Below are positions 21,166 through 35,314 of a stretch of DNA of 35,314 bases, piece by piece (position 1 is the stretch's first letter; the number at the start of each line of letters is the position of its first letter). The translations under genes were made by a program, and so were the position numbers. Source of the stretch: Candidatus Latescibacterota bacterium (GTDB taxonomy: Bacteria; Latescibacterota; 4484-107; B68-G9); assembly GCA_012962735.1 (NCBI GenBank), contig DTXA01000513.1, forward strand, positions 1 through 35,314. The letters run 5' to 3'. The notes under the pieces were generated by a model that ran no database searches, was not told the origin of the DNA, and was given only the letters and a program-made list of their open reading frames with translations.

Positions 21166-22122
21166 TTACTCCTCCGGGGAGGCCAGGGGCTTCAGGCGCG
21201 AGGAAAGCTCCCTCAAAGCCCCGAAGAGGCCCTGGGGTGCGAAAAGCATTATGCCCAGCAATATTCCCCCGTACACCAAGATGTCGTAATCCCTGAAGCC
21301 CCGGAGCACCTCGGGCAGAAGCCCCAGCAGCACGGCACCCATCACAGCCCCCCACACCGAGGAGAGCCCCCCGACCACCACCATGGCCACGAACAATATA
21401 GAGGCCTTCAGGCCGAAGGAGCTGGGGCTGATGAAGGTGACGAAGTGGGCGTAGAAGCTACCGGCCAGGCAGGCCAGGAGCGCGCTCCACACGAAAGCCT
21501 GTAGCTTGTACCGGGCCACATGCACCCCGACAGAGCTGGCGGCCACCTCCCCGGTGTGGAGCGTGCGCAGGGCCCGGCCCACCCGAGAATGGATCAGGTT
21601 GAGGGTGAGCATAAGGGCCAGAAGGGCGAAGGCCCATACGGTCACATAACAGGCTCGAGGGTCTTCTATCACCAGGGACTCCACCCCAAGCCTGGGTATA
21701 CCTCCGAACCCGGACGGTCCTCCCGTAAGGGAGACAGAGGCGTTGAGGAAGATGTACACGACCTCACCAAACCCCAAGGTGGCCATAGCTAAGTAATGTC
21801 CCCGGAGCCTCAAGGTGGGCAGGCCCACTGAGAGGGCCAACAGGGCAGCCAAAACCAGGGCGACCAGGAGCGCAGGGATGGGGTGGAACCCCCATCTCGT
21901 GGTCGACAGACCAGAGGTGTAAGCGCCGACGGCGAAGAACGCTGCATGGCCTAAGGATATCTGACCGGCGTACCCCATAAGGAGGCTGAGGCCCGTGGCG
22001 ATGAGCACGTACATCCCCACGAAGGTGAGGACGCCCAGGTAGTAAGGGTTCCCCACGAGCACGGCGGAAAGCCCGATCGCTCCAGCCAAGATGGCCAACC
22101 CTATGCGGTCTCCCTTATCCAT
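21166..22122 (-). CDS. Branched-chain amino acid ABC transporter permease, LivM-like
   Basis: LMGYAGQISLGHAAFFAVGAY is the LivM/LivH signature. The protein has multiple hydrophobic helices and is 318 aa long. Confidence 0.8.
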   Translation of the reverse strand: MDKGDRIGLAILAGAIGLSAVLVGNPYYLGVLTFVGMYVLIATGLSLLMGYAGQISLGHAAFFAVGAYTSGLSTTRWGFHPIPALLVALVLAALLALSVGLPTLRLRGHYLAMATLGFGEVVYIFLNASVSLTGGPSGFGGIPRLGVESLVIEDPRACYVTVWAFALLALMLTLNLIHSRVGRALRTLHTGEVAASSVGVHVARYKLQAFVWSALLACLAGSFYAHFVTFISPSSFGLKASILFVAMVVVGGLSSVWGAVMGAVLLGLLPEVLRGFRDYDILVYGGILLGIMLFAPQGLFGALRELSSRLKPLASPEE

Positions 22123-22139
22123 CGCTCTCCGTGTACCTC

Positions 22140-22186
22140 AGACCGAGAAACGGTCGTTTACTTCAAAGGGGCCTCTCTTTCGGTCT
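22140..22186 (-). other. Imperfect intercistronic stem-loop between the ABC permease stop and the livM-like start
   Basis: Minus-strand AGACCGAAAGA...TTTCTCGGTCT gives an 11-position stem with one mismatch and one G-U pair and a 25-nt loop. The SD GGAGAG and the ATG follow. Confidence 0.3.
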
Positions 22187-22228
22187 AATACAAACCAACT
22201 GGAGACCTCAGGGGTTATATTTAAGAGG

Positions 22229-23068
22229 CTATCCCTTAAGCCCGGCTCGGGCCATACTCTCGATGAAGTACCGCTGGAAGAAGACATAGGCCAGAAGAAT
22301 GGGTACGGCAAGCAAGGTAGCCGCCGCAAGTTTGGGCCCCAGCAGTGCCTCCGACCGTCCGCTGACCGCAAAGAGGGCCACCACCTGGGGCATAGTCATC
22401 AGCTTTGGCTCCCGGATCACGATCAGCGGCCAGAGGACCTCGTTCCAGCTGGCCATGAAGGTAAGGATACCCACAGTGACCATAGCGGGCCGCGCCAAAG
22501 GCCAGACGATCCTGAACAGGATCGTCAGCTCGCCGCAGCCGTCGATCCTGGCCGCATCTATCAGGTCTTGGGGGATGCTCCGGAAGAACTGCCGGAACAG
22601 GAAGATGCCGAAAGCGCTGACCATACCGGGTACGATCAAGGCCAGGTACGTGTCCACCCACCGAAACTTGACCATGAGCACATAGGTGGGTATCAAAGTG
22701 AGCTGGAACGGGACCATCATGGTAAACAGGACCACCCCGAAGATAAGTTCCCCTCCCCGGAACCTCAGCCGCGATAGGGCGTATCCGATCATCGAGCCGA
22801 AGACCAGTACCGAGACGGTGATAGTCAGCGCCACGAACAGGCTGTTGAAGAAGGATCGACCGATGGGGGTCCGTTCCAGGACCATCCGATAGCTGGCCAG
22901 GGTCCAGTTGTGGGGAACCAGGCCGAGGCTCGGGATTTCCACCTCGGGCTTGAACGTGGCCGCCACCATCCAGAGGAACGGATACAGAAAGATCAGGCCC
23001 CCGGCCAGTAACACGGCATACAGCAACAATCTGGAAAGTTCCCGAAGTTGTCCCATATATATCTCCAA
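22229..23068 (-). CDS. Carbohydrate ABC transporter permease (MalG/UgpE-like)
   Basis: FLYPFLWMVAATFK N-terminus and an EAA-type loop (DLIDAARIDGCGELTILFRIVWPLARP). Confidence 0.85.
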   Translation of the reverse strand: MEIYMGQLRELSRLLLYAVLLAGGLIFLYPFLWMVAATFKPEVEIPSLGLVPHNWTLASYRMVLERTPIGRSFFNSLFVALTITVSVLVFGSMIGYALSRLRFRGGELIFGVVLFTMMVPFQLTLIPTYVLMVKFRWVDTYLALIVPGMVSAFGIFLFRQFFRSIPQDLIDAARIDGCGELTILFRIVWPLARPAMVTVGILTFMASWNEVLWPLIVIREPKLMTMPQVVALFAVSGRSEALLGPKLAAATLLAVPILLAYVFFQRYFIESMARAGLKG

Positions 23069-23119
23069 GGGCCCCTAAAAAGTATCTGAGCGGAGCGAAG
23101 AACTCTTCGGGGCTGTATA
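23069..23119 (-). repeat. Stem-loop leader module, copy A (malF-like / malG-like intercistronic)
   Basis: Minus strand: TATACAGCCCCGAAGAGTTCTTCGCTCCGCTCAGATACTTTTTAGGGGCCCTTGGAGATATATATG. The hairpin arms lie within 23072-23112. It is near-identical to copy B at 34361-34429. Confidence 0.7.
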
Positions 23120-23126
23120 CCCCTCC

Positions 23127-24023
23127 TCATACGTAGACCTCACGTTCCACGAAACGACGCTGAAGTGCCACCACTGCGAATATAATCACGGCGAACACGA
23201 ACCCGAGCGTGGCCGCATAACCCATTCTGTAAAAATAGAAGGCTTGCTTGTAAATGTAAAGAACCGCCGAAAGGGTGGAGTTGAGAGGTCCTCCACCCGT
23301 CATCATGTACGGTTCTATGAACAGTGAGAAACCGCCGATGGTCGAGAGCACCAGGACGAGCACCACGACCGGGTTGAGCATGGGCAACGTTATATGCCAG
23401 AACATCCGCCAACGGGAAGCTCCGTCCAGCTCGGCTGCCTCGTATAGATCGGGAGAGATCCCCTGGAGTCCCGCTAAGAACAGGACGATATAAAGGCCCA
23501 CGTTCTTCCAGGTGGCCATCAGCGCTATGGAGGGCATAGCCCAATAGGGGCTGGAGAGCCATGGGACTCTCCCCAATCCCAGCTTCGTCAAAATGCCATT
23601 GAGGAGCCCGGTCTCCTCGGCGTAGAGATGCTGCCAGAGGATCGTCACAACGACGCCGGATACTACCACCGGGGCGAAGTAGGCCGCTCGAAAGAAGCCC
23701 CTGAGACGAATCCTACTGTTTAGAAGCTCTGCGAAGAAGAGGGCCACAGCGATCTGGAGGGGGATGTGGATGGCCAAGAAGACCAGCGTGTTCAACAGCG
23801 CCCGAAAGAAGAGGAGGTCCGAGCTAAGCCGGGCGAAGTTGGCGAGTCCCACCCACTTCATAGGGGATACTATGTCCCACTTGTGGAACACCAGCACGAG
23901 GGAAAAACTCAAGGGGTAAGCTATGAACACGAGGAAGTGGAGGCTGTACGGGATGCAGAAGAAGTACCCTATCCTGGCCAATCGCCTTTGCAACCCAGAG
24001 GGCTTTTTCCCATCGGTCCTCAC
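23127..24023 (-). CDS. Carbohydrate ABC transporter permease (MalF/UgpA-like)
   Basis: An EAA loop (LYEAAELDGASRWRMFWHITLPML) and six predicted TM helices. Confidence 0.85.
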   Translation of the reverse strand: MRTDGKKPSGLQRRLARIGYFFCIPYSLHFLVFIAYPLSFSLVLVFHKWDIVSPMKWVGLANFARLSSDLLFFRALLNTLVFLAIHIPLQIAVALFFAELLNSRIRLRGFFRAAYFAPVVVSGVVVTILWQHLYAEETGLLNGILTKLGLGRVPWLSSPYWAMPSIALMATWKNVGLYIVLFLAGLQGISPDLYEAAELDGASRWRMFWHITLPMLNPVVVLVLVLSTIGGFSLFIEPYMMTGGGPLNSTLSAVLYIYKQAFYFYRMGYAATLGFVFAVIIFAVVALQRRFVEREVYV

Positions 24024-24026
24024 CGC

Positions 24027-25325
24027 TCACTCCATCAAGATCTGACGGCACCGCCCAGCGGCGTCCCAGACCCCCTCTTCGGGCGTCTTCGTCCCATAGA
24101 TGCATGCCGCCTCGAACTCCATAGAGATGGCGTCGAAGACCTCCTTGAGCTCCGGCACGGGATCGACCCCTCGGGTATAGAGGACCTGGCGGGCGAAGCG
24201 CTCCATCATAGGGTTGCTCCGGAAGTAGCCGGCGAAACGTGGATCGGTCAGCAGGTCCTTCCGGATGGGGAGCTGGTTGGTCCGCTCCAAGAGCAGCCGG
24301 TCAGCCTCCTCGCTGATGAGGTAACGGGCGAATTCCCAGGCTACCTGTGGGTTTCGGCACGTTGCGAAGATAACTATGTTCTTGGGGTCCCCGTACGTAT
24401 AGAGAGGCCCTTCGTAATCGTCCGGGACGGGGATAGGCATAAAGTCGTACTCGAACCCGGGCGGTCTGTACTTCTCCACGTAAGGGATGCTCCAGGGGCC
24501 GGTGACTTGGGCGGCGATCAGTCCCCTCAAAAAGGCATCCCCCTGGAAGCCCGCCCTGGGGAAGATGCTCCTCCTGAACCCCTCCTGGAAGAACCGGAAC
24601 ACGGCCGCAGCCGCCTGGTCATCGAATGCTACCTCCCTACCCCGTAGCAGGGTCCGCCCCCCGGAGGCGGCGATATAGAAGGTGTAGAAGTCGAAGAACC
24701 GTTGCCACCAACGGACGTCGGGATTGACGAACATCATCCACCGGTCGGGCCGGCCGTCCCCGTCCAGGTCTCGGGTCACCCTCTCGCCGGCCTCTAAGAA
24801 CTCCGAATAGGTGCGGGGCACCTTATCTATGCCCGCCTCCCGGAGGAGCTTCTTGTTGTACTGGATAAGGATGGGGTTGGTCTTCCAGGGGATCTGGTAG
24901 AAGCCGCCGTCCAGGGACCGGTACTGCTCTAAGAGGCCCGAGTCCATCCGAGCGGTCATGACGGCGAAAAAATCGGGGAAGGTATCCAGTCGGACAAGCG
25001 CCCGGGCCCTTACGAACTGCTCGACCACGCCCGGCCATATGGCCGAGCAGAGGTCCGGGGTGGTCTTGGCGGCGATAGCCGCCAACAGCACTTCCTCGCT
25101 GGACTGGCTCTCCGGGATGGGCTGGTGGACCACTTGGGCCTCGGGGTGCTCTGCGTTCCACCGGGCAGTGAGCTCCCTGGCCAGCTCGACCTCCTGTACG
25201 TTGGCAGCGGACCAATAGGTCAACCGGACGGGCTCGTTTCCCCGGCCGGCTTGCGAGCACCCGTCGAAACCCAATGCCACGACCTCAAAAGCGACTACAA
25301 GTAGTCCGAGGACCCGTCCCATCAC
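24027..25325 (-). CDS. ABC transporter extracellular solute-binding protein, family 1 (sugar)
   Basis: N-terminal hydrophobic signal with Cys (LGFDGCS), a length of 432 aa, and the typical SBP_bac_1 pattern. The start overlaps the GTPase stop (ATGA). Confidence 0.8.
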   Translation of the reverse strand: MMGRVLGLLVVAFEVVALGFDGCSQAGRGNEPVRLTYWSAANVQEVELARELTARWNAEHPEAQVVHQPIPESQSSEEVLLAAIAAKTTPDLCSAIWPGVVEQFVRARALVRLDTFPDFFAVMTARMDSGLLEQYRSLDGGFYQIPWKTNPILIQYNKKLLREAGIDKVPRTYSEFLEAGERVTRDLDGDGRPDRWMMFVNPDVRWWQRFFDFYTFYIAASGGRTLLRGREVAFDDQAAAAVFRFFQEGFRRSIFPRAGFQGDAFLRGLIAAQVTGPWSIPYVEKYRPPGFEYDFMPIPVPDDYEGPLYTYGDPKNIVIFATCRNPQVAWEFARYLISEEADRLLLERTNQLPIRKDLLTDPRFAGYFRSNPMMERFARQVLYTRGVDPVPELKEVFDAISMEFEAACIYGTKTPEEGVWDAAGRCRQILME

Positions 25326-26284
25326 CCTCCGTGCACCTCCAAGATGTCCCCGTCCTCGACCTCTAAATCCCTCGGGGCCCGCAGCCCATTGTACTGGTCC
25401 TTGCGCCAGATACGGGCATAACGGAAGTTCCGGGCCAGGTCCTTGTGGATGGCCGCTGCTAAGTCTAAGATAGTACTCCCCTTAGGTAGAACATAGGGTT
25501 TCTCCATGTCAGGCTTGTGGCCAGGTTCCTTGGTGTACACCCGCACCACCCCGAGCCTCTCGAATATTTCCCTCTTGAGCTCCTCGAGGCCATAGCCCGT
25601 CTCAGCTGAGACACAGACTAAGGGTAAGTCATCGCCTAAGGCGTCCTCGAGGGCCTCGGCCTTCTCGGGGGCGCCGACCGCGTCCCACATGTTGGCCACC
25701 AGGATACCGGGTTTAGCCCCTTCGCCCGTGAGTCGGACCCTGGCTTCCTCTAAGAGCCCCAGTGCCTCGAGGACCTGGTCCTCCGGATCGTCGTCGGAGA
25801 GGGAGACCACCACCAGCACCAGCTCGGAGGTGCGGATGAGGTGATACACCCATGGTTCGGTGACATCGGGGTGTAGGGGAGGAAGGTCCACGAGCTGGAC
25901 CTGGACGTCCTCGTATGGCATCATACCGGGGGTAGGGAGGAAGGTGGAGAAGGGATAGGGGGCCACCTGGGGCCTCGCCCTGGTCAGGGCCGCGAGGAGG
26001 CTGGATTTTCCGGTGTTCGGAGGGCCAGCCAACGTCGCCTGACCAGCCCCCTCCCGCTTTATGCGGTCTATGGGGGAGGAACGGGCCACCTTGGGCTTCT
26101 TCCGGGCCTCCCGGGAGAGCTGGGCAAGGCGGCGCCGGAGGTAGGCGTGAAGTTTCTCCGTGCCCTTGTGTTTGGGCATTACAGCCAGCATCTTCCGGAT
26201 GGCAGCTATCTTCTCCTGGGGCGTCCGAGCCTTCTGGAACTCCTCCTCCGCTTCGAAGTACTGAGGGGGTAGGTTGGCTGGCAT
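25322..26284 (-). CDS. DRG/Rbg-like (Obg-class) GTPase with a C-terminal TGS domain; G3/G4 are non-canonical
   Basis: A DRG-type N-terminal helix (ARTPQEKIAAIRKMLAVMPKHKGTEKLHAYLRRRLAQL), G1 GPPNTGKS, G5-like VSAETG, and a C-terminal TGS-like segment. The expected DxxG reads DLPP and the expected NKxD reads NMWD. Confidence 0.7.
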   Translation of the reverse strand: MPANLPPQYFEAEEEFQKARTPQEKIAAIRKMLAVMPKHKGTEKLHAYLRRRLAQLSREARKKPKVARSSPIDRIKREGAGQATLAGPPNTGKSSLLAALTRARPQVAPYPFSTFLPTPGMMPYEDVQVQLVDLPPLHPDVTEPWVYHLIRTSELVLVVVSLSDDDPEDQVLEALGLLEEARVRLTGEGAKPGILVANMWDAVGAPEKAEALEDALGDDLPLVCVSAETGYGLEELKREIFERLGVVRVYTKEPGHKPDMEKPYVLPKGSTILDLAAAIHKDLARNFRYARIWRKDQYNGLRAPRDLEVEDGDILEVHGG

Positions 26285-26358
26285 ATTATTCTCTCCAAAG
26301 AACGATCGTTCGCTTTAGAGTGGCTTTTTCGGCCTAATATGGGCCAATTGATAAGAGA

Positions 26359-26383
26359 CCCCAAAGCGGAGAACTTTTCGGGG
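26359..26383 (-). repeat. Stem-loop leader module, shortened copy C
   Basis: Minus strand: TATTGGCCCCGAAAAGTTCTCCGCTTTGGGGTCTCTTAT, immediately after the aminotransferase stop. It shares GCCCCGAAAAGTTCT and TTTGGGG with copies A and B. A similar SD (TTTGGAGAGAATAATATG) sits at the GTPase start. Confidence 0.5.
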
Positions 26384-26392
26384 CCAATAGCT

Positions 26393-27523
26393 TCACTCCC
26401 GTGCCAGAACCTCCTGGGCTGCGGCTATTCCCTTCCCCATCGGAACCTTCCAGCCTACGTCCCTAAGGGCCCTTTCGAGGGCCGCCACGGCCGAGATGGC
26501 GTCGAAATCGTCCACATATCCCAGGTGTGTGATGCGGACCACCTTGCCGGAGAGTCCCTCCTGCCCGCCCGCGAAGGTAACCCCGTAAGCCTGGGCTGCC
26601 TTCAGCAGCGCCTTCCCGTCCACCCCTTCCGGGGCACGCACGATGGTGAGCACGTTGGATGGAGCCCGAGCGAAGAGCTCTAATCCCAAAGCCTGAACCG
26701 CCCTTCTAGTGGCCTCCGCATGTCGGGCGTGTCGGCGCCAGAGTGCCTCTAAGCCTATCTCCCGGATGGTCCTCAGGGACCGAGCAAGGCCCACGATCAG
26801 GGACACCGCAGGGGTGTATGGGGTCTGGCCCTTGGCCAGGGACGAGCGGGCCTTCCGAAGGTCCCAGTAGTACTTGGGGAGGTCGGAGCGCTTCACAGCC
26901 TCCCAGGCCTTTTCGCTCAGGGAGATGAAGGCCATGCCCGGAGGGAGCATCAGGCCCTTCTGGGAGCCGGTGAGCACCACGTCCACCCCCCACTCGTCCA
27001 TGGGCAGTGGATGCGCCCCCAGGGAGGATATGGCGTCCACTACAAGGAGGACACCCGCCTTCTTAGCCACCTCGGCCAGGGCCTTTACGTCGTGGAGGAC
27101 CCCGGTGGAGGTCTCGCTGTAGGTGGCGAAGACCACCTTGACCTCGGGGTGCTCTTTCAGGGCCCTCCCCACCTCCTCTGGGTCCACCGCATCCCCCCAT
27201 TCCACGTCCACGGGCACGCACCGTATCCCGTAAGCCTCGCACAGCTCCCCCCACCGCTCCCCGAACTTCCCACCACGTATCACCAAGGCCGTATCCTTCC
27301 GGGCAAGTAGGTTGACCACGGCCGTCTCCATAGCCCCGGTTCCGGAGGAGGTCAGAGTCAACACGGGGTTTTCGGTCTGGAAGAGGTACTTCAGGTCCTC
27401 CAGAACCTTTCCGAAGAGCTCTGCGAATGCCTTAGAACGGTGGTGTATTATAGGCCGTGCCATCTCCAACAACACTTCCTCCGGTACCGTAGTGGGTCCC
27501 GGGGTAAAGAGCCGCTGTTTCAT
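26393..27523 (-). CDS. Class V aminotransferase (serine-pyruvate / alanine-glyoxylate aminotransferase family)
   Basis: The N-terminus LFTPGPTTVPEEVL is the class V hallmark. Also present are SSGTGAMETAV and TGSQKGLMLPPG (the PLP Lys). Confidence 0.85.
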   Translation of the reverse strand: MKQRLFTPGPTTVPEEVLLEMARPIIHHRSKAFAELFGKVLEDLKYLFQTENPVLTLTSSGTGAMETAVVNLLARKDTALVIRGGKFGERWGELCEAYGIRCVPVDVEWGDAVDPEEVGRALKEHPEVKVVFATYSETSTGVLHDVKALAEVAKKAGVLLVVDAISSLGAHPLPMDEWGVDVVLTGSQKGLMLPPGMAFISLSEKAWEAVKRSDLPKYYWDLRKARSSLAKGQTPYTPAVSLIVGLARSLRTIREIGLEALWRRHARHAEATRRAVQALGLELFARAPSNVLTIVRAPEGVDGKALLKAAQAYGVTFAGGQEGLSGKVVRITHLGYVDDFDAISAVAALERALRDVGWKVPMGKGIAAAQEVLARE

Positions 27524-27571
27524 CTCACCTCCTTAAGATGTAAAGGGCTGTCTCTCAACTCCTGGATAACT

Positions 27572-28465
27572 TCATAATAGCTCCTCCCACACCCGCCCCC
27601 ATGCCTCTGAGAGCATCCGCTTGGCCCCGGCCAACACCAGGTCTGGGTCCTCGCCAGGCAGGGGCCGCACCTCGAGGCTCACGATCGGCGGGTCCTCCGG
27701 GTCCAGGAACCCCGCCTCCCCCAGGGCCCAGAGGAACTCGGTCACCTCCTCTACCCCGTTAGCCCCTCCCTCCAACCCGAGGCGGGGGTGCTTGTCACCG
27801 TAAGCCGGGTGGGATGGGTCGAGGACGCAGTTGCCCACGTGGACCTGAAGGAGGTATTCCCCAGCGGACTCCATCGCATCCCAGGGGTCCTCCCCCAGCA
27901 AAGGCAGGTGAGATAGGTCCACCAAAAGCCCCAAATTGGCCCGGTTGGTCCGCTCCACGACCTCCACGGCCTCCTCGGTGGGGCCTATCAGGGCCCTCTT
28001 TTCCACATCCCGGTCGAAGGTCTCCAGAGCCACCTCTATGCCATATCCCCAAGCGTAGTCGCACACCTCCCGGAGGGAGCAGACCAGCTGTTCTCGAGCC
28101 CGTTCCCGCTCCCCTTCCCCTGGGTCCGGTCCGGACATCACAGCCATCCGTCCAACCCCCAGCCTCCGGGCCCGGTCTACGTGCCCCTTGAGGAGGTCCA
28201 CCGCCCGCCTGCGCTCGGAGTTCTCTAAGGCGTTGGGGTTGACACCCTCGACCAGCACTGCCGGCTGGGCGCAGTACACCAAGGTCAACCCCGAGGTCTC
28301 GGCTATCTCCATCACCTGTCCCTCCTCTTCAGGCAGGGGGGGGACCTCCGCAACCGAGAAGAAGGGGTCCGCCGCTATTTTCCTAAGGGCCTCTGGAAAG
28401 GGAAGGTCGGGATAGACCATATTCACGACGACTCCCAAACGCATATACGTCGAAAGCGGCTCCAT
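27572..28465 (-). CDS. Sugar phosphate isomerase/epimerase (xylose isomerase-like TIM barrel) family protein
   Basis: The pattern of conserved E/D/H residues (ALETF, LLVDLSHL, HVGNC, SLEVRP) and the 297-aa length fit the AP_endonuc_2 / IolI-IolE-like fold. Confidence 0.65.
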   Translation of the reverse strand: MEPLSTYMRLGVVVNMVYPDLPFPEALRKIAADPFFSVAEVPPLPEEEGQVMEIAETSGLTLVYCAQPAVLVEGVNPNALENSERRRAVDLLKGHVDRARRLGVGRMAVMSGPDPGEGERERAREQLVCSLREVCDYAWGYGIEVALETFDRDVEKRALIGPTEEAVEVVERTNRANLGLLVDLSHLPLLGEDPWDAMESAGEYLLQVHVGNCVLDPSHPAYGDKHPRLGLEGGANGVEEVTEFLWALGEAGFLDPEDPPIVSLEVRPLPGEDPDLVLAGAKRMLSEAWGRVWEELL

Positions 28466-28476
28466 GTTCTCCTCCT

Positions 28477-29319
28477 TTAACGCCCGATACTCTTCTGGTA
28501 TTGCAGCCCCGCCTCCTCAACTATAGGCTCGACGTCCTTCAACCACCGGTGGGCCGGGTCGTCGTAGGGCAGGAGAATACGTTCCCTCCCGGCCAAGACC
28601 CAAAGGTAGCACAGTCGGTAGCCCGGCCCGGCGACAACTGGATGGTATCCCCTTGGAATCACGACGGTGTCCCCGTCCTCCACAACGTAGACCTCGTCCA
28701 CATCCCGGTCCTCCGTGTAGATGCGCTGGATCCCGAAGCCCTGGCGAGGCTTAACCTTGAAGAAGTAAACCTCCTCCATATCCGCCTCCTCCGGGGGGCG
28801 GTCGAAGTCGTGGCGGTGGGGGGGCGAGCTGGACCAGTTCCCAGGGGGGTTCACGGTCTCCCCTACAAGCAGGTGCTGCGCAGACACCTGCGGGCCCACG
28901 ATCTCCTTGACCTCCCTCCTCCAGTTCAACTTCCCCACCGAGCGGACCCGCACCTCCCCGGGGAAGATCAGCCTGGGAGGCCCCTCCCGGTCGGAGGGCG
29001 CCTTGCACACGGCCACCTCCACATCGCCCAGACCTACCACCCGCACCCGATGCCCCGGAGGTACGAAGACCGCATGGGCCTCCCCGGAGAACACGTCCTG
29101 CCTTTCCCCTATGCCCTCGTACGCCTCCACCCCTGCATAGACCGTGCACCTTCCCCCTAACACCACCAAGGCCGCCTCCTTACCCTCCGGACCCCACCGG
29201 TACTCCTCCCCATCCCTCAGCCTCAGCAGTCCGAACTCGATGAAATCGGTCCTGGGGTCCCCCTCGGGTACGACGGGCAGGAACCCGTATTCCTCCCTCC
29301 CCTTGATATGCCAGTCCAT
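28477..29319 (-). CDS. iolB: 5-deoxy-glucuronate isomerase (KduI/IolB family cupin)
   Basis: GNWSSSPPHRHD...PEEADMEEVYFFK..PRQGFGIQRIYT.DR.VDE...V.DGDTVVIPRGYHPVVAGPGY...YLWVLAG...DDPAHRWL closely follows the Bacillus subtilis IolB signature as I recall it. Confidence 0.85.
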   Translation of the reverse strand: MDWHIKGREEYGFLPVVPEGDPRTDFIEFGLLRLRDGEEYRWGPEGKEAALVVLGGRCTVYAGVEAYEGIGERQDVFSGEAHAVFVPPGHRVRVVGLGDVEVAVCKAPSDREGPPRLIFPGEVRVRSVGKLNWRREVKEIVGPQVSAQHLLVGETVNPPGNWSSSPPHRHDFDRPPEEADMEEVYFFKVKPRQGFGIQRIYTEDRDVDEVYVVEDGDTVVIPRGYHPVVAGPGYRLCYLWVLAGRERILLPYDDPAHRWLKDVEPIVEEAGLQYQKSIGR

Positions 29320-29337
29320 CTTACCTCCTCACCGACT

Positions 29338-30666
29338 CTATGCATTGCGGCCAGCCATAGCCCGGCGCACCCCCTTAAGCTTCTCCTGACATATACGGTA
29401 CACCAGCTCCGGCGGGTACCCATCGCCGAACCTACCTAAGTCCCTGGGCCTGTGCTCCTCGAATTCCCTCAACGCCATCTCGTACTCCCTGGCAGCCGGG
29501 CCAAGGAGACCTCCCTCCCGGTAGATGTCCCCTAAATACATCCTGGCCAGCACGTCCGGCCGCAGGAGGAGCACCCTCCGGAACTCCTCGGAAGCCCGGC
29601 CCGTCTCGCCCATCGCCTTGTAGATCAACCCCTTGAGGAAGTGGGCGTCCGCATATGTTGGGTCCTTCTTCAGGGCCTCCTCGCAGAGCCTGAGGGCCTC
29701 TCCGTGCCTCCCAGCATCTGCATGTCCCTCCGCCAGGCAGATGAGTTCGTCCGGGCTCTCCCCCGCATCCTGGAGCGGAGGCTTCGGCTTGGGCCTCTCG
29801 GCCATCCTCGGCTCTACAACCTCCCGCTTCCGGTAGGCCCAGGCGTCCCCGAGCCAAACCGGGCGGAATTTGTCGGTCAGAAACCTCAGGTTCTCGGAAT
29901 ATCCAACGAACAGATACCCCAGGTCATCCAGGCTCAGGTAGAAGTTGTGGATCACCCGCTTGGTCGACCTCAGCTTGAAGTAGATCGTCACGTTCCGGCA
30001 GAATATGATGTCCCACCCTTTCATCTTGGAGAGGGGATAGGGTTCGAAGATTAGGTTAAAGTACTCAAACCGCACCATTCCTTTGATCTCTTCCGAGACG
30101 TGGAACAGCCCTCCCCGTTCCTCGAAGTACCGTCTTCTGTACCTCTCCTCCAGCTCCTTAAGGGAGCGAGGCCTGTAGACTCCTCTCCTGGCGTCCCGCA
30201 GCGCCCTCTCGCTCACATCGGTCCCCAGTATCTCCACCTTCCACCGTCCAAGGTCGGGCAGTACGTCCCTCACCACCATGGCTATGGAATAGGGCTCCTC
30301 CCCAGTGGAACAACCGGCGCTCCATATGCGTATCGTGCGGGTGTCCCTCTTGTGCCTTGCGATCTCAGGAAGAACATGCGACCTAAGGGCTTCGAACTGG
30401 GCTCTGTCCCGGAAGAACCACGTCTCGTTCACCGTGAGGATGTCCAGAAGCCTGCGGAATTCCGCCTCACGGTCGGGCCCCCAGGTGAGTCGTTCGTAAT
30501 ACTCCCTGTATTCGGTCAACTCCAGCGCACTCATCCGGGACACGAGGGCGATGCGCAGCGCATCCCTCCTCTCCTCCCCGAAGTGAAGCCCACTGTTGCG
30601 CTCTATGAAGTCTCCGAACAGAGCGAACTCCTCATCGCTCAGGTCCGGCCTGATCTTCGGATACAT
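29338..30666 (-). CDS. cheR: Chemotaxis protein methyltransferase CheR with a C-terminal TPR extension
   Basis: VNETWFFRD and IWSAGCSTGEEPYSIAM SAM-binding motifs. The C-terminal roughly 130 aa are TPR-like (ALRLCEEALKKDPTYADAHFLKGLIYKAMGE...). Confidence 0.85.
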   Translation of the reverse strand: MYPKIRPDLSDEEFALFGDFIERNSGLHFGEERRDALRIALVSRMSALELTEYREYYERLTWGPDREAEFRRLLDILTVNETWFFRDRAQFEALRSHVLPEIARHKRDTRTIRIWSAGCSTGEEPYSIAMVVRDVLPDLGRWKVEILGTDVSERALRDARRGVYRPRSLKELEERYRRRYFEERGGLFHVSEEIKGMVRFEYFNLIFEPYPLSKMKGWDIIFCRNVTIYFKLRSTKRVIHNFYLSLDDLGYLFVGYSENLRFLTDKFRPVWLGDAWAYRKREVVEPRMAERPKPKPPLQDAGESPDELICLAEGHADAGRHGEALRLCEEALKKDPTYADAHFLKGLIYKAMGETGRASEEFRRVLLLRPDVLARMYLGDIYREGGLLGPAAREYEMALREFEEHRPRDLGRFGDGYPPELVYRICQEKLKGVRRAMAGRNA

Positions 30667-31684
30667 CGGAAACCTCTCGCACGGTTCGGACGAGCTCCTC
30701 TGCGATGCGCTCCAGGGGTATCACTTCATCCACTGCATCTAAGGCTATAGCAGCCTGAGGCATAGATGCGACCACGCAGGTGGAGGCCTCCTGGGCTATG
30801 GTCCTTCCGCCCCTGTCCCGTATCGCCTTGATCCCCCTGGCCCCGTCGTCCAGCATACCCGTCAGGATCACCCCCACCGCCCGAGGTCCTCGGGCCTCGG
30901 CCACAGAGGACAGCAGTATATCCGCTGAAGGACGGAACGCCCGCAGGGGGGGGCCATCCCTAAGGCGCACCCTCGCCCTCCCATCCACGGCCATATGGAC
31001 TCCGTCAGGGGCGAAAAGCACCACCCCAGGCGCCACCTCGTCTCCTTCCTCCCCCACCCTGACCTCCAGCGGACACCTCTCGTCTATGGAGGCCGCCAGC
31101 CCCTCTATGAACCCCTTGGCCATATGCTGCACCACCACAACCCCGGCCGGGAAGTCGGGAGGGAGCTCGGACAGGATATACGACAGGGCTGACGGCCCCC
31201 CAGTGGAGGACGCCACAGCCACTATGGGGCTCCCGGATGCGGGGGAGCGTCGAGGGGGTTTGACCCGCCTGCGGCGTGGGGTGGGTCTGACCCTACAGAG
31301 CACCTTCACCTGGCGGGCGAAACACAGTGCAGCCTCGGGGTGCCGCCTGGAGAGGAGGAGGGGGGGTTTGGGCAGGACGTCCAGGGCCCCGGCCTCTAAG
31401 GACCGCTTCAGCAACATCTCCTCGTCGTCGTATGAGGCGGTCACCATAACGATGGGGACGGAATGCTCCTGCAGGACCCTGCGGGCAGCTTCGAACCCGT
31501 CCATACCCCCCGGAAGCCGAATGTCCATAAGCACCACATCAGGTCGGAGCTTCATGACCTCGGCGACCGCCTCCTCCCCCCGTACGGCGAACCCCACCAC
31601 CCGGAACTCCGGGTCCACCTCGAGCGCCTCCTGTATCGCTCTCTGAGCCGTGCGAAGGTCGTCCACAACGAGGGCACGGATCAC
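30632..31684 (-). CDS. cheB: Protein-glutamate methylesterase CheB (REC plus methylesterase)
   Basis: REC domain with DVVLMDIRLPGGMDG. Esterase triad context: ASSTGGPSAL, VVVQHM, LTGMLDDGARG. It overlaps cheR by 35 nt. Confidence 0.9.
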   Translation of the reverse strand: MIRALVVDDLRTAQRAIQEALEVDPEFRVVGFAVRGEEAVAEVMKLRPDVVLMDIRLPGGMDGFEAARRVLQEHSVPIVMVTASYDDEEMLLKRSLEAGALDVLPKPPLLLSRRHPEAALCFARQVKVLCRVRPTPRRRRVKPPRRSPASGSPIVAVASSTGGPSALSYILSELPPDFPAGVVVVQHMAKGFIEGLAASIDERCPLEVRVGEEGDEVAPGVVLFAPDGVHMAVDGRARVRLRDGPPLRAFRPSADILLSSVAEARGPRAVGVILTGMLDDGARGIKAIRDRGGRTIAQEASTCVVASMPQAAIALDAVDEVIPLERIAEELVRTVREVSDVSEDQAGPER

Positions 31685-34011
31685 CTCCGCCTCCTGCCGA
31701 TCAAGAGACGCACTGTGTCTATCAAGTTCTCCCCCCGAAACCCGCTTTTCAGGATATACGCATCCGCTCCCGCCTCCAATCCTCTCCTCCTGTCCTCCTC
31801 CCTCACCATCGAGGTCACTATTACCACGGGAACGTCCATGTACCTCTCGTCCCCGCGGATGCGCTGGATCAGGGTGAACCCATCCATACGGGGCATTTGG
31901 ATGTCCGTAACCACCAGGTCGAAGGGCTTTTCGGCCAGTTTCCCGAGCGCCTCTTCGCCGTCGCTGGCCACCTCCACCTCAAATCCCGCACCCTCGAGCA
32001 GGCTCTTCTCCACCTGCTGGGTTACCAGTTGGTCCTCCACCAGGAGCACCCTCGGCCTGCGATGTCCGGGCTCAGGCTCCCCCTGGGCCCCTCTCCTGCC
32101 GGCCAGCCGCACCAGGGCCGACGGCTCTAAGATGGGGACCACTTCCCCGCTCCCTAAGACCGTGACTCCCGAGAGGAACGGGGTCCTGCGCAACAGGAAG
32201 GACCCGGGGGACTTCACCACCACCTCCTGCTCCCCCAAAACCTCCTCCACCCCGAGTGCCACCCAGCGTCCTTCCGTCCGGACCACAAGCGCCTGGGTGG
32301 GGTCATCACCTCCATTCCACCCCAAGGCCTCCATCAGGGAGATCAAGGGGATCAGATGGCCGCCTATGTAGATCGTCCTCCCACCGTCCTGGCGGTAGGC
32401 ATCGTCCTTCCGCAGTCGCACCGCCTGCTCCACCGCGTCCGCCGGCAGGGCCAAGGTCCTACCCCCAGTCTTCAACAGGAAGGCCGGGGCGGTGATCAAA
32501 GTGAGGGGGAAGTCCAGGACAAATTTGGTCCCCCTCCCCTTCCTCGTGGAAACCGAAACTCTTCCCTTGAGCCGCTCTACGTTTGTGCGCACGACGTCCA
32601 GCCCGATTCCTCTCCCGGAGACGTCGGTGACCGAGGTGCTCGTGCTGAACCCGGGCAGGAATATCAGCTCGCACGCTTCCTCAGAGGAAAGGGCATCTGC
32701 CTCCCGGTGGGAGAGCAGGCCTCGACGCACGGCCGTATCCTTCAGCTCTTCCGGATCCATCCCCCGGCCGTCGTCCTCCACCTCTATCAACACCCGTCCC
32801 TCCTGCTGACGGGCCGTGACCCGGACCGTGCCGGCTTCGGGCTTGCCGGACTTCCTCCGCTCTTCTTTGGGCTCTATCCCGTGGTCCAGAGCGTTGCGGA
32901 TGAGGTGGATAAGAGGGTCCCAGATTTGCTCTAAGATGCTCTTGTCCACCTCCACCTCTCCTCCCTCCTGCACAAGCTTCGCCTCCTTGCCGAACTGCTT
33001 AGCCAGGTCCCGGACGGCCCTGGGAAGCATGTGGAATACAGTTGAGACCGGCAACATTCTGGCACGCATTATGGTGTCCCGCAACTCGGAGAGGAGGAGG
33101 TGGACCCCCTCCAATCGGTCCCCGAATTGCCTGCAGAAGTCGTCCATACGAGCTGCGAGTTGGGGGGCTTCCGTCCTGAGGTCCGCCAGCGTCTCCTCTG
33201 CGTCCGCCTGGAGCTCGGAGAGGCCAAGGTGGTGCGTGAACAGCTCCTCTAAGAGGTTCAAGAGGGCGTCTAAAAGTTCGGTGCGCACCCGGACGGTCTC
33301 CCCCAGGGCCTCTTGGGGGACGGAGGGAGGCCTCGGGGGCGCCTCCTTCCGCCTCCCCCAGGAAAGGGCATCCAAGCTCCGGTTGATGGCGTCTAAGGCC
33401 TCTAAGACCCCATCTAACACTTCCTCCGAGAGTTCCCCTCGTCCCTCGCTGAGGTCCCGGAAGACCTCCTCGATCCCGTGCGCCAGAGAGCTTATTTCGG
33501 TAAGTCCCATAGTCATAGCAGAGCCCTTGAGGCTGTGAGCTCTGCGGAACACTTCTTGGAGGGCTTCCTCGTTCCCCGGCTCTTCCCTCAACCGCCCCAG
33601 CCCCGTGTTGATCCCCCCCAAATGTTCCCTCGCGGACTCCAAGAAGTCGGGGAGGAACTGGGCCAGCTCCCCAAGGTCCTCTTCGGTAGGGGGGAGCTTC
33701 TGGCCGGCGGCGGCCTTCAGGAGGGAGCCCACCACGTCCAGGTCCCGCAGGAAGGCCTCTAAGTGGCCGGAGTCCATGGCACCGCCCCGCTCCCATATGC
33801 CCTTCAATCTTCCCTCCATCTCGTGCACCAGGTTCACTGCTCGTCCGACCCCTAACATCCTTCCCAGCGCCTTCAAGTTGTGGAAACCCTGGGAGACCGA
33901 GCGCCGGAGCTCCTCGTCCTGAGGATCGAGAGAGAGGGCCAGAAGGTCCTCGTTGAGACGCTGTACCTGTTCCGATATGTCCTCCCGCACGAACTCATGG
34001 GACATCGGCAT
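31681..34011 (-). CDS. cheA: Hybrid chemotaxis histidine kinase CheA (two HPt, dimerisation/HATPase, CheW-like, and C-terminal REC domains)
   Basis: HPt-1 is FHNLKALGRMLG and HPt-2 is AHSLKGSAMTMG. N-box HLIRNALDHGIE, G1 DDGRGMD, G2 GRGIGLDVV, a CheW-like P5 domain, and REC DLVVTDIQMPRMDG. Confidence 0.9.
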   Translation of the reverse strand: MPMSHEFVREDISEQVQRLNEDLLALSLDPQDEELRRSVSQGFHNLKALGRMLGVGRAVNLVHEMEGRLKGIWERGGAMDSGHLEAFLRDLDVVGSLLKAAAGQKLPPTEEDLGELAQFLPDFLESAREHLGGINTGLGRLREEPGNEEALQEVFRRAHSLKGSAMTMGLTEISSLAHGIEEVFRDLSEGRGELSEEVLDGVLEALDAINRSLDALSWGRRKEAPPRPPSVPQEALGETVRVRTELLDALLNLLEELFTHHLGLSELQADAEETLADLRTEAPQLAARMDDFCRQFGDRLEGVHLLLSELRDTIMRARMLPVSTVFHMLPRAVRDLAKQFGKEAKLVQEGGEVEVDKSILEQIWDPLIHLIRNALDHGIEPKEERRKSGKPEAGTVRVTARQQEGRVLIEVEDDGRGMDPEELKDTAVRRGLLSHREADALSSEEACELIFLPGFSTSTSVTDVSGRGIGLDVVRTNVERLKGRVSVSTRKGRGTKFVLDFPLTLITAPAFLLKTGGRTLALPADAVEQAVRLRKDDAYRQDGGRTIYIGGHLIPLISLMEALGWNGGDDPTQALVVRTEGRWVALGVEEVLGEQEVVVKSPGSFLLRRTPFLSGVTVLGSGEVVPILEPSALVRLAGRRGAQGEPEPGHRRPRVLLVEDQLVTQQVEKSLLEGAGFEVEVASDGEEALGKLAEKPFDLVVTDIQMPRMDGFTLIQRIRGDERYMDVPVVIVTSMVREEDRRRGLEAGADAYILKSGFRGENLIDTVRLLIGRRRR

Positions 34012-34360
34012 CCCCTCCTTTCGGGACGAGGGCGGGGAGATCGACCAGCCACAGGACCCTCTCCTCCCTGTATGCCAGGGCCCATATCCATGGGAAGCGG
34101 AGCTTCGCCTCGATGAGAGTGGGGAGAGGGTAGATCTGGGCAGGGGATAGGGAGGTCACCCCATCCACCTCATCCACCACTACCAAGAATGGACTCTCCC
34201 CACCCACCACCAAAGCCTCCCCCGAAAAGCCACCGAACCCCAGCTCCTCCGCCAAGATCACCTTGGGGAGGGAAAAGTTCGGCTCCCGCAAGACTTCCTC
34301 CACCTCCCGGAGGTCTGCGGCAAAGGGAAACCCACTGGCCCAGAAGGTCAGTACCTCCAT
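33995..34360 (-). CDS. cheW: CheW-like coupling protein (short, 121 aa)
   Basis: The position is immediately upstream of cheA, overlapping it by 17 nt. The CheW-like pattern is (F.ASGFPFAADLREVEEV...LVVVDEVDGV...LWLVDL). Confidence 0.65.
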   Translation of the reverse strand: MEVLTFWASGFPFAADLREVEEVLREPNFSLPKVILAEELGFGGFSGEALVVGGESPFLVVVDEVDGVTSLSPAQIYPLPTLIEAKLRFPWIWALAYREERVLWLVDLPALVPKGGDADVP

Positions 34361-34429
34361 CTATATCTCCAAAATAAGGGATCCCCAAAAAGTACCTGAG
34401 CGAAGCGAAGAACTTTTTGGGGCTATATA
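34361..34429 (-). repeat. Stem-loop leader module, copy B (perfect 11-bp stem)
   Basis: Minus strand: TATATAGCCCCAAAAAGTTCTTCGCTTCGCTCAGGTACTTTTTGGGGATCCCTTATTTTGGAGATATAGATG. The arms at 34383-34393 and 34412-34422 are perfectly complementary, with an 18-nt loop. Confidence 0.75.
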
Positions 34430-34446
34430 ACTTGACAATGTCACAT

Positions 34447-35314
34447 TTAAGGTGGTGAGTGGGAATGGTGCTGAGCTTTCAGCCGACTCTTACGCGAGCG
34501 GGTGCGGCGCACCAGAAGCTCGATGACGTGAGCTTGGGCTTCCTCGGGCGAAAGCTTGGGCAAAGGCATCACCGCCTTCAGCAATGTACGCACATTAGCC
34601 ACCGACAGAGCCGGCAGTACCTCCACTTCGAACTGCGCCGCCAGTCTCGGGTCCCGGCTATAGCGCTGCACCCAACGCAGCTTTGTCTCGGCGATGAACC
34701 AAGTGGCCAGGATGGTCATGGCAAGATGGTGCATCCAGGCTGTATACTTCTGGGCTTGCAACTCATCCCAGCCTACCTCAGATTTGGCCTCCTGGTGAGC
34801 CCGCTCGCAAAAGTAGCGCTGACATTTCAGATAGGCCAACCGCTCCAGTGGGGTGTCCGCTGGGGCATTGCTCAAGGCATAGGTCATCCTCCCGTTGGAC
34901 TCTTTGCGCATCACCAGCCATTCTTCTGCCACTTCCCCTTCGTGCACCGTCCACACACGCCTGGCGGCAAACTCGTCCTCAAGCACTCCCCGCTCGGTGC
35001 TGCGCACACGGACACGTTGCCAACGGGTCTCCTTTTGGCTGGACAGGCTATGCACAGCCACCGCTGGGGTGCCAGATACCACCTGAGGGCGGATGGGATG
35101 ACGTCCCCTGTTGCCACGCCTGGGCGGCACCGCCAGGGTAGGAAGGCTCAGGTAGACCTGAGTGTCCCGGGGAACCTCGGCAATATAGACCACCCCAGCC
35201 TGTCGCAACTGATCCCGAAACCAGCCACTTTGCCCGTAGAGGGTATCACAGGCAACCGCCTCAAAGGGCAATACCCCTTGGGCCAAGATCTGCTGGATCA
35301 TCTGCCAGCCCAGC
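34447..35314 (-). mobile_element. IS701-family (DDE) transposase gene, C-terminal part; the 5' end lies beyond the window edge
   Basis: VACDTLYGQSGWFRDQLRQAGVVYIAEV and CERAHQEAKSEVGWDELQAQKYTAWMHHLAMTILATWFI match the IS701/ISRSO17-type DDE transposase C-terminus. The reading frame stays open to the window edge upstream of the listed Met. Confidence 0.75.

Follow-up and report, generated by a model that had tools for sequence, protein, structure and literature searches.

A Frz-like chemosensory gene cassette lacking its own receptor gene in Candidatus Latescibacterota, and a candidate receptor encoded at a separate co-varying locus

We analyzed a stretch of 35,314 nucleotides (hereafter, the window), which is the whole of contig C513 in a 574-contig metagenome-assembled genome (MAG) of Candidatus Latescibacterota bacterium (host genome, G000). 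One end of the window carries 4 che genes encoding the core of a chemosensory pathway. Together with a fifth gene, found on another contig beyond an insertion sequence (IS), they form a single unit, the five-gene cassette cheW(172 aa)-cheW'(121 aa)-cheA(2xHPt)-REC-cheB-cheR-TPR, where cheW' denotes a short second cheW and TPR stands for tetratricopeptide repeats. The cassette, its immediate surroundings, and the search for its receptor, a methyl-accepting chemotaxis protein (MCP), are the subject of this report. The features of the locus are as follows.

33995..34360, minus strand: cheW' (121 aa), predicted CheW fold, FrzB-like (Pfam, 22.3 bits)
31681..34011, minus strand: cheA-REC (776 aa), with HPt1 (H44), HPt2 (H159), dimerization, HATPase, and P5/CheW-like domains and a receiver at residues 655-765 (Pfam)
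30632..31684, minus strand: cheB (350 aa), receiver and methylesterase (Pfam; NCBIfam CheB subfamily, 304.6 bits)
29338..30666, minus strand: cheR-TPR (442 aa), CheR_N and SAM-dependent methyltransferase domains followed by C-terminal TPR at about residues 305-402 (Pfam; NCBIfam CheR), FrzF/WspC-like
C337:78-596, beyond the IS: canonical cheW (172 aa; Pfam, 101 bits)
34361..34430, no strand: a single member of a family of short, dispersed hairpin repeats, core CCCCAAAAAG...CTTTTTGGGG (blastn and folding)
34431..35314, minus strand: terminal part of an IS701-family IS (Pfam DDE_5; NCBIfam IS701), with the C-terminal 288 aa of the transposase at 34447-35313
28477..29319, minus strand: kduI (KduI/IolB family; Pfam), a flanking gene outside the pathway that marks the downstream boundary of the cassette

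The 4 che genes of the window are contiguous on the minus strand and their open reading frames (ORFs) overlap by 17 nt (cheW'/cheA), 4 nt (cheA/cheB), and 35 nt (cheB/cheR), just as a preliminary description of this DNA, made from the sequence alone, had reported; gene callers place the cheA start 2 codons later, which gives a protein of 774 aa. The domain architecture given there, with 2 HPt domains and a fused receiver in CheA and a C-terminal TPR extension in CheR, was likewise borne out. Pfam models detect Hpt, H-kinase_dim, HATPase_c, CheW (P5), and Response_reg domains in CheA, which thus has the complete complement of a core kinase, and REC and CheB_methylest domains in CheB, for which the NCBIfam subfamily cut-off is 293 bits. 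The catalytic motifs, described earlier as intact, can be read from all 3 translations: the H box AHSLKGSA, N box HLIRNALDHG, G1 DDGRG, F box FLPGFS, G2 GRGIG, and receiver motif DIQMP in CheA; SSTGGP, VQHM, and LDDG, with the Ser-His-Asp triad present, in CheB; and the SAM motif CSTGEEPYS in CheR. The N-terminal HPt domain of CheA (FHNLKA) was barely detectable: with the scan restricted to residues 1-111, it scored 24.7 bits, the cut-off being 24.6. Because it reaches the cut-off and its histidine motif is conserved in the closest homologues (LHNIKG in the N-terminal alignment), we consider both HPt domains to be real. Counting the canonical CheW adaptor beyond the IS, CheW, CheB, and CheR are all present in the che core (Pfam, NCBIfam). 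A Pfam scan of the window and a read-through of an overlapping contig (L103, see below) revealed no receptor gene within the cassette, and there is no response-regulator gene in or beside it, the only receivers being those fused to CheA and CheB.

The IS had been taken for the upstream flank of the che genes. The IS701 element is real, but it runs off the end of the contig, so that the earlier impression of nothing upstream was partly an assembly limit; the true neighbor beyond it is the canonical cheW, a few bases 3' of whose stop codon the element is inserted. The first 77 nucleotides of contig C337 of the host genome (C337:1-77) are identical to window positions 34354-34430. Past this overlap, the 2 sequences part: the window enters the IS, and C337 enters cheW at its 3' end, as is characteristic of an assembly graph that branches where an insertion is polymorphic. 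The IS-free allele is represented by L103, an independent contig of 78 kb that crosses the junction without an IS and is 99.96% identical to window positions 21681-34430 and 99.7% identical to C337. The break in L104, a contig from a third assembly, falls exactly on window position 34430. The insertion is polymorphic in the population: it is recent, is carried by only part of the population, and there parts cheW from the other 4 genes. Read along L103 and C337, the locus comprises dprA (divergent), a DJ-1/PfpI gene, ORFs of 206 and 105 aa, a TPR lipoprotein gene, cheW, the 70-nt repeat, cheW', cheA, cheB, cheR-TPR, and kduI. No MCP, CheY, output, or flagellar gene occurs upstream of the IS site on these 2 contigs, and the earlier statement that the pathway has no receptor, CheY, or output gene in cis thus also holds past the IS.

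The 70-nt repeat, which fills the spacer between cheW and cheW', has the structure CCCCAAAAAG-loop-CTTTTTGGGG with TATA-rich flanks and is dispersed in the host genome in both orientations. A blastn search of the genome with the end of the window placed copies on 8 other contigs, the copy on C337 being the window locus itself. Five copies are found at contig ends, with contigs C433, C405, C558, C66, and C423 starting in one, and further copies lie at C548:5808-5859 and C229:1235-1275. The copy at the cassette supplies the GGAG ahead of the cheW' ATG, and it is directly beside it that the IS701 element is inserted. In the second cassette-bearing species (species B, contig L105), the repeat is absent, and the stop codon of cheW overlaps the start of cheW'. 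A scan of the cassette for promoters and terminators yielded no promoter-like site, and terminator-like matches were below the chance level.

The boundaries of the cassette could be defined precisely by comparison with related genomes. The cassette lies exactly between the TPR lipoprotein gene and kduI, and in 2 genomes of the same genus (G001 and G002), kduI, which is 80% identical to that of the window and has the same adjacent genes, follows the stop codon of the TPR gene after 17-18 nt, with all 5 che genes absent. The cassette is therefore an exact indel with a clean junction in these 2 genomes. Three genomes of the same class contain kduI and have neither the cassette nor a CheA-REC. The TPR lipoprotein was considered as a pathway member and rejected, given that its gene is kept beside kduI in the cassette-less genomes. 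Species B, with a CheA 77-78% identical to that of the window, has the cassette between the same TPR and kduI genes and likewise lacks an MCP gene there; neither of the IS-free arrangements, L103 and L105, shows an in-cluster receptor. The 2 cassette-bearing species are diverged by about 22% at the protein level, and all 5 ORFs are intact in both. Between the window lineage and species B, dN/dS is 0.09-0.17 for all 5 genes (cheW', 0.17; cheA, 0.10; cheB, 0.09; cheR-TPR, 0.12) at a dS of about 1.1-1.5. Such low values between 2 lineages without an in-cluster mcp gene indicate that the mcp-less cassette is maintained by selection.

To place the kinase, we relied on a maximum likelihood tree of the CheA core comprising 41 sequences, with SH-aLRT support values. 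The tree consists of 2 groups separated with a support of 96. One contains the MotAB-linked CheA of the host genome (contig C268) with its orthologues from the same genus and class, whereas the other is composed of CheA-REC kinases. Among the latter is the FrzE protein from Myxococcus sp. Y35, which was identified by its synteny with the divergent dual-receiver gene frzZ. The window CheA and its L105 counterpart (support 100) join those of L106 and L107 (89) within the CheA-REC clade, in line with the earlier assignment to an alternative-function pathway of the Wsp or Frz type. The position of FrzE, 38% identical to the window CheA, at the base of the CheA-REC clade is not settled by this tree.

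The clusters nearest to the cassette (L106, L107, L108, and L144; 38-42% CheA identity) consist of cheW, short cheW, mcp, cheA-REC, cheB, and cheR(-TPR). In 3 of the 4, they are found directly downstream of a gene for a PilB/MshE-like MshEN-T2SSE ATPase (L106:4465-6630, L144:6671-8836, and L108:5713-7557), which in L106 and L144 is fused to a C-terminal receiver, an arrangement suggestive of a chemosensory output acting directly on a pilus or secretion motor. The extra HPt1 of the window CheA recurs only in the L106/L144 type. Judged by the gene content of these closest homologues, the absence of an MCP from the cassette is a derived state. Other genomes of the same phylum carry CheA-REC systems in a Wsp-like order. 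In L107, the in-cluster MCP (L107:8522-9999) is called as 2 ORFs, one of 139 aa with a transmembrane segment and one of 337 aa with HAMP and the signaling domain, recorded without Pfam hits, which is probably due to a frameshift or a mis-called start and not to a missing receptor.

CheR-TPR fusions are typical of ACF-type clusters (PMC3447774), ACF (for alternative cellular function) being a class in the scheme of Wuichet and Zhulin as cited in that paper. Of the ACF features, the cassette has the CheR-TPR fusion and no multidomain response regulator within the cluster. There is no flagellar linkage (F class), the CheA falling outside the MotAB-linked clade and the neighboring genes being non-flagellar, and no type IV pilus genes or PilG/PilH-type regulator genes that would point to the Tfp (Pil-Chp) class lie beside the cassette, nor, unlike in the homologous clusters, does an MshEN-T2SSE ATPase gene. 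The cassette is a non-flagellar chemosensory system that probably belongs to the CheA-REC/CheR-TPR (ACF-type) group; its genes follow the frz order except that the receptor gene is lacking, and as such it is of a known kind.

The second chemotaxis system of the host genome is split between contigs. One half, at C268:13000-21252, consists of cheY-cheA-cheB-motA-motB and several REC/HK genes, and its CheA has 2 Hpt stretches and no REC. The other half, on C364, has the order cheW-(ABC_sub_bind-like)-mcp-cheY-cheZ-like-HisKA fragment-HEAT repeat protein-HDOD fragment-cheR.

The product of the short second cheW, initially recorded simply as a CheW, turned out to be a CheW in fold and not a canonical one. 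Its score of 22.3 bits is under the Pfam cut-off of 23.5, and only the C-terminal half of the model was matched. Compared with canonical CheWs, CheW' is missing about 20 residues, corresponding to the 'PxxPxfixGvxnxRGexxP' stretch (alignment A1); the same gap is present in FrzB of Myxococcus sp. Y35 (alignment A2) and is shared in part by the short second CheWs of L106, L107, and L144. Sequence searches gave little, phmmer finding no match among PDB sequences and a word-based homologue search recovering a single relative cluster only, and a structure prediction was therefore needed. The AlphaFold2 model (pLDDT 87.8) matched CheW structures in Foldseek with TMq of 0.76-0.80 and E values down to 1e-7, and on this model CheW' is a truncated, FrzB-like protein with the CheW fold. 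In Myxococcus xanthus, the FrzB deletion removes strands beta4-beta5, which bind the P5 domain of CheA, and FrzB binds the receptor, not the kinase, and organizes arrays (PMC6952110). By analogy, CheW' may have the same role of binding receptors and organizing the array with no kinase binding.

Short second CheWs of the FrzB type were observed at the frzB position in several phyla (L106:7258-7674, L107:7982-8386, L144:9542-9952, and L125:11192-11566). FrzB was confined to Cystobacterineae in a 2015 survey (PMC4546325), and the range of FrzB-type truncated CheWs is hereby extended beyond that group and outside myxobacteria, be it by descent or by convergence.

Among characterized systems, the closest parallel is Frz of M. 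xanthus (PMC4546325, PMC6952110, PMC2535941). The frz order frzA-B-CD-E-G-F, corresponding to MXAN_4143 to MXAN_4138 (PMC4546325) and confirmed in Myxococcus sp. Y35, is the same for the 5 genes of the cassette. Shared are a FrzE-like CheA with a fused receiver, a FrzF-like CheR with C-terminal TPR, and a second CheW of about 120 aa with the deletion of about 20 residues seen in FrzB, in the region that contacts CheA P5; the cassette CheA also belongs to the same broad clade as FrzE, with orthology left open by the basal polytomy and the 38% identity. In contrast to frz, the cassette has no receptor gene between cheW' and cheA and no FrzZ-like dual receiver beside it, and its CheA has an extra N-terminal HPt that FrzE does not have. 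The candidate receptor described below is predicted to be a transmembrane protein with a periplasmic region, whereas FrzCD is cytoplasmic and nucleoid-bound. The nearest CheA relatives overall (38-40% over the full length) are those of L106 and L144, from MAGs labeled as Syntrophobacteria/Deltaproteobacteria, which have in common with the cassette the second HPt, the short second CheW, and CheR-TPR. However, these clusters keep the MCP (721 aa), which is the best distant match of the candidate receptor, and have as an obvious output the receiver-fused pilus/secretion-type ATPase directly upstream, neither of which is present at the cassette. The Wsp system of Pseudomonas (wspA-F, wspR) resembles it in CheA-REC, CheR-TPR, 2 CheWs, CheB, and a non-flagellar function, but its order is MCP-W-R-W-A-B-RR, and there is no REC-GGDEF protein (WspR) in the host genome. 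We describe the cassette as frz-like rather than wsp-like on the strength of its gene order and its truncated second CheW, both of which agree with frz. Finally, the alpha and beta groups of che clusters in Geobacter have their receptor genes encoded elsewhere (PMC2577667). The likeness here is one of description only, but with this precedent a mcp-less cluster is less unusual than the preliminary description implied.

That description left both input and output of the pathway undefined. For the input, there is now a candidate. The host genome encodes 2 MCPs, one on contig C22 and the other on C364. The C22 MCP is a protein of 644 aa with 2 predicted transmembrane segments, a periplasmic domain, and HAMP, and its orthologues give a weak dCache_1 match. 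It matches the cluster-embedded MCPs of L108 (3e-48), L106 (9e-47), and L107 (5e-43) as well as FrzCD (2e-39), whereas the C364 MCP matches the embedded MCPs with E values of only 1e-6 to 1e-12. In a search of 5.8 billion proteins, the best non-orthologous matches of the C22 MCP were MCPs of 721 aa, one of which (P0132) is encoded between a short cheW and a cheA-REC whose product is a 40% homologue of the window CheA. The C364 MCP is part of the flagellar-type system, and G001 and G002, which lack the cassette, have full-length orthologues of it (67-68% identity), whereas the C22 MCP has no orthologue in either genome: the gene order is DUF4398, mcp, gltD-like, DUF58 in G000, and DUF4398 is followed by gltD-like with no mcp between them in G001 and G002. 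In the second species, the MAG GCA_964520735.1 contains TPR-cheW-cheW'-cheA on L150 and DUF4398-MCP-gltD on L143, and JGI sample 3300005098 yielded both L105 and L152. Two species thus have both loci and 2 have neither, with empty sites observed at the cassette and the mcp loci alike. Since it was gained or lost together with the cassette at 2 clean indel sites, the C22 MCP is the likely input and the best candidate, on the correlative evidence of similarity and co-variation.

Taken together, these results make it probable, in our estimation, that the locus is a non-flagellar cassette of the Frz/ACF type whose receptor is encoded at the separate, co-varying C22 locus. In the wiring that we propose, which concerns every protein-protein contact, each phosphotransfer step, and the output, the transmembrane sensor-HAMP MCP (644 aa) from C22 would sense a periplasmic ligand, the 172-aa CheW would link the tip of the MCP to the P5 domain of CheA, and the truncated CheW', like FrzB, would bind receptors and not CheA and thereby shape the array. 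CheA would autophosphorylate on HPt2, its own receiver, CheB, and a further response regulator being the acceptors of the phosphate, with CheR-TPR and CheB adapting the MCP by methylation and demethylation.

Several points weigh against this reading. The class was assigned from a tree of 41 sequences whose basal forks are open and which leaves FrzE unplaced at the clade base, and not from published class HMMs. The co-variation involves 2 'present' and 2 'absent' species of a single genus, and one of the 'present' cases depends on MAG binning and one shared sample. The tip sequences of the C22 and C364 MCPs are similar and do not discriminate between partners; the tip motif was accordingly discarded as uninformative. 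The IS carried by part of the population may inactivate the operon there. Finally, whereas the search of the genome for MCPs produced a candidate, that for REC-output proteins did not: there is no output gene in or beside the cassette, and no co-varying output protein was found in the genome. The PilB/GspE-type ATPase on C451 was ruled out as such, being 89% conserved in the cassette-less G002, and so were the single-domain receivers on C206 and C534, which have orthologues in cassette-less relatives.

The C451 protein is the only ATPase of its type in the host genome, is encoded in a pilin/PilC-like cluster, and has no receiver. A REC-GGDEF output was rejected, the single GGDEF protein of the genome being without a receiver. 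The candidate on C574, the end of a hybrid kinase, gave no nucleotide match. Receiver domains number roughly 25 in the host genome. A module at C209:7988-12407 encodes a single REC, a PAS/HisKA-like protein that lacks an ATPase domain, REC-HD-GYP, STAS, and a REC-REC-PP2C (SpoIIE) phosphatase, which is the only REC-REC protein found in the host genome. A REC census of G001 and G002 detected frames of 546 and 557 aa, compared with 548 aa for REC-REC-PP2C and matching it in score, which suggests that this gene is present there too. Partner-switching sets like this module are often found as ACF outputs, and nothing was seen linking it to the cassette. A first guess, by analogy with the nearest clusters, is that the output is a pilus or secretion-type machine, and an internal relay via the second HPt is possible.

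A bolder version dispenses with a separate response regulator: a His-Asp-His relay inside CheA, made up of its 2 HPts and its fused receiver, would feed a core machine or partner-switching module (the candidates being the single type IV pilus/T2SS-like apparatus on C451 and the REC-REC-PP2C/STAS set of C209). As a separate matter, FrzB-like, CheA-blind CheWs would be ancient and widespread array organizers and not a myxobacterial invention. We hold this version to be doubtful. If true, the relay would give a flagellated member of the host phylum a Frz-like controller of reversal or surface behavior; we know of no motility data from a cultured representative of this phylum.

An alternative to a C22 receptor is that the cassette has no dedicated receptor, and either serves the array of the C364 MCP as a second kinase and adaptation branch or works receptor-free. 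With just 2 MCPs in the host genome, alike in their tips, and mcp-less che clusters known elsewhere (PMC2577667), such an arrangement is conceivable. However, the orthologues of the C364 MCP in cassette-less genomes show it to be independent of the cassette, and it is far less similar to the cluster-embedded MCPs than the C22 MCP (1e-6 to 1e-12 versus 1e-43 to 1e-48), which was gained or lost together with the cassette. Purifying selection on CheB and CheR, moreover, implies a methyl-accepting substrate, and we regard this alternative as unlikely.

Alternatively, the cassette might be a decaying remnant, now being hit by an IS, in which signaling has ceased after the loss of the receptor gene and of the ATPase/response-regulator neighbor. 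The MCP and T2SSE-REC genes are indeed missing relative to the nearest homologues, the cassette is wholly absent from 2 congeners, some members of the population have cheW cut off from the other genes by IS701, and the 206- and 105-aa ORFs among the upstream neighbors are gene remnants. Yet 5 intact ORFs in 2 species diverged by about 22%, with dN/dS of 0.09-0.17 at a dS above 1, all catalytic motifs retained, an IS-free allele in existence, and a matching MCP kept elsewhere that co-varies with the cassette render decay quite improbable. A flagellar-class operon with MCP, CheY, and flagellar genes just past the IS, conceivable as long as the contig ended in that element and hid the upstream region from view, is refuted by the IS-free contig, which continues there with cheW, the TPR lipoprotein gene, the remnants, DJ-1, and dprA, by the existence of a flagellar-type system on C268 (cheY-cheA-cheB-motA-motB) and C364 (cheW-mcp-cheY-cheZ-like-cheR), and by the placement of the 2 CheAs of the host genome in different clades.

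Two features of the flanks deserve mention. The 206-aa ORF (C337:1608-2228) and the 105-aa ORF (about C337:1267-1584) upstream of the TPR gene, together at L103:7425-8386, match segments of G001 that are 55-73% identical and lie kilobases apart inside larger genes. These ORFs are gene remnants and, by implication, traces of deletions in the region upstream of the cassette in the host genome. We had considered them as a novel sensor, which was rejected in view of the lack of domains and the distance between the matching pieces in G001; the 105-aa ORF resembles, by eye and with no model match, the C-terminal piece of an oxidoreductase. On the other side, an AP_endonuc_2 gene (xylose-isomerase-like TIM barrel; window 27572-28465) between kduI and an aminotransferase gene occurs in both G000 and G002 and has no match at the same position in G001, marking another small indel.

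No new kind of system is revealed by this work. What it adds is the full cassette with its boundaries, a polymorphic IS, a FrzB-like adaptor outside myxobacteria, and a specific candidate receptor. Matching patterns of presence and absence at 2 clean indel sites make it possible to pair a mcp-less che cluster with an orphan receptor. The result is a testable wiring diagram, extending from the receptor through the adaptors and kinase to the adaptation enzymes, of the second chemosensory pathway, a non-flagellar one, of an uncultured lineage.

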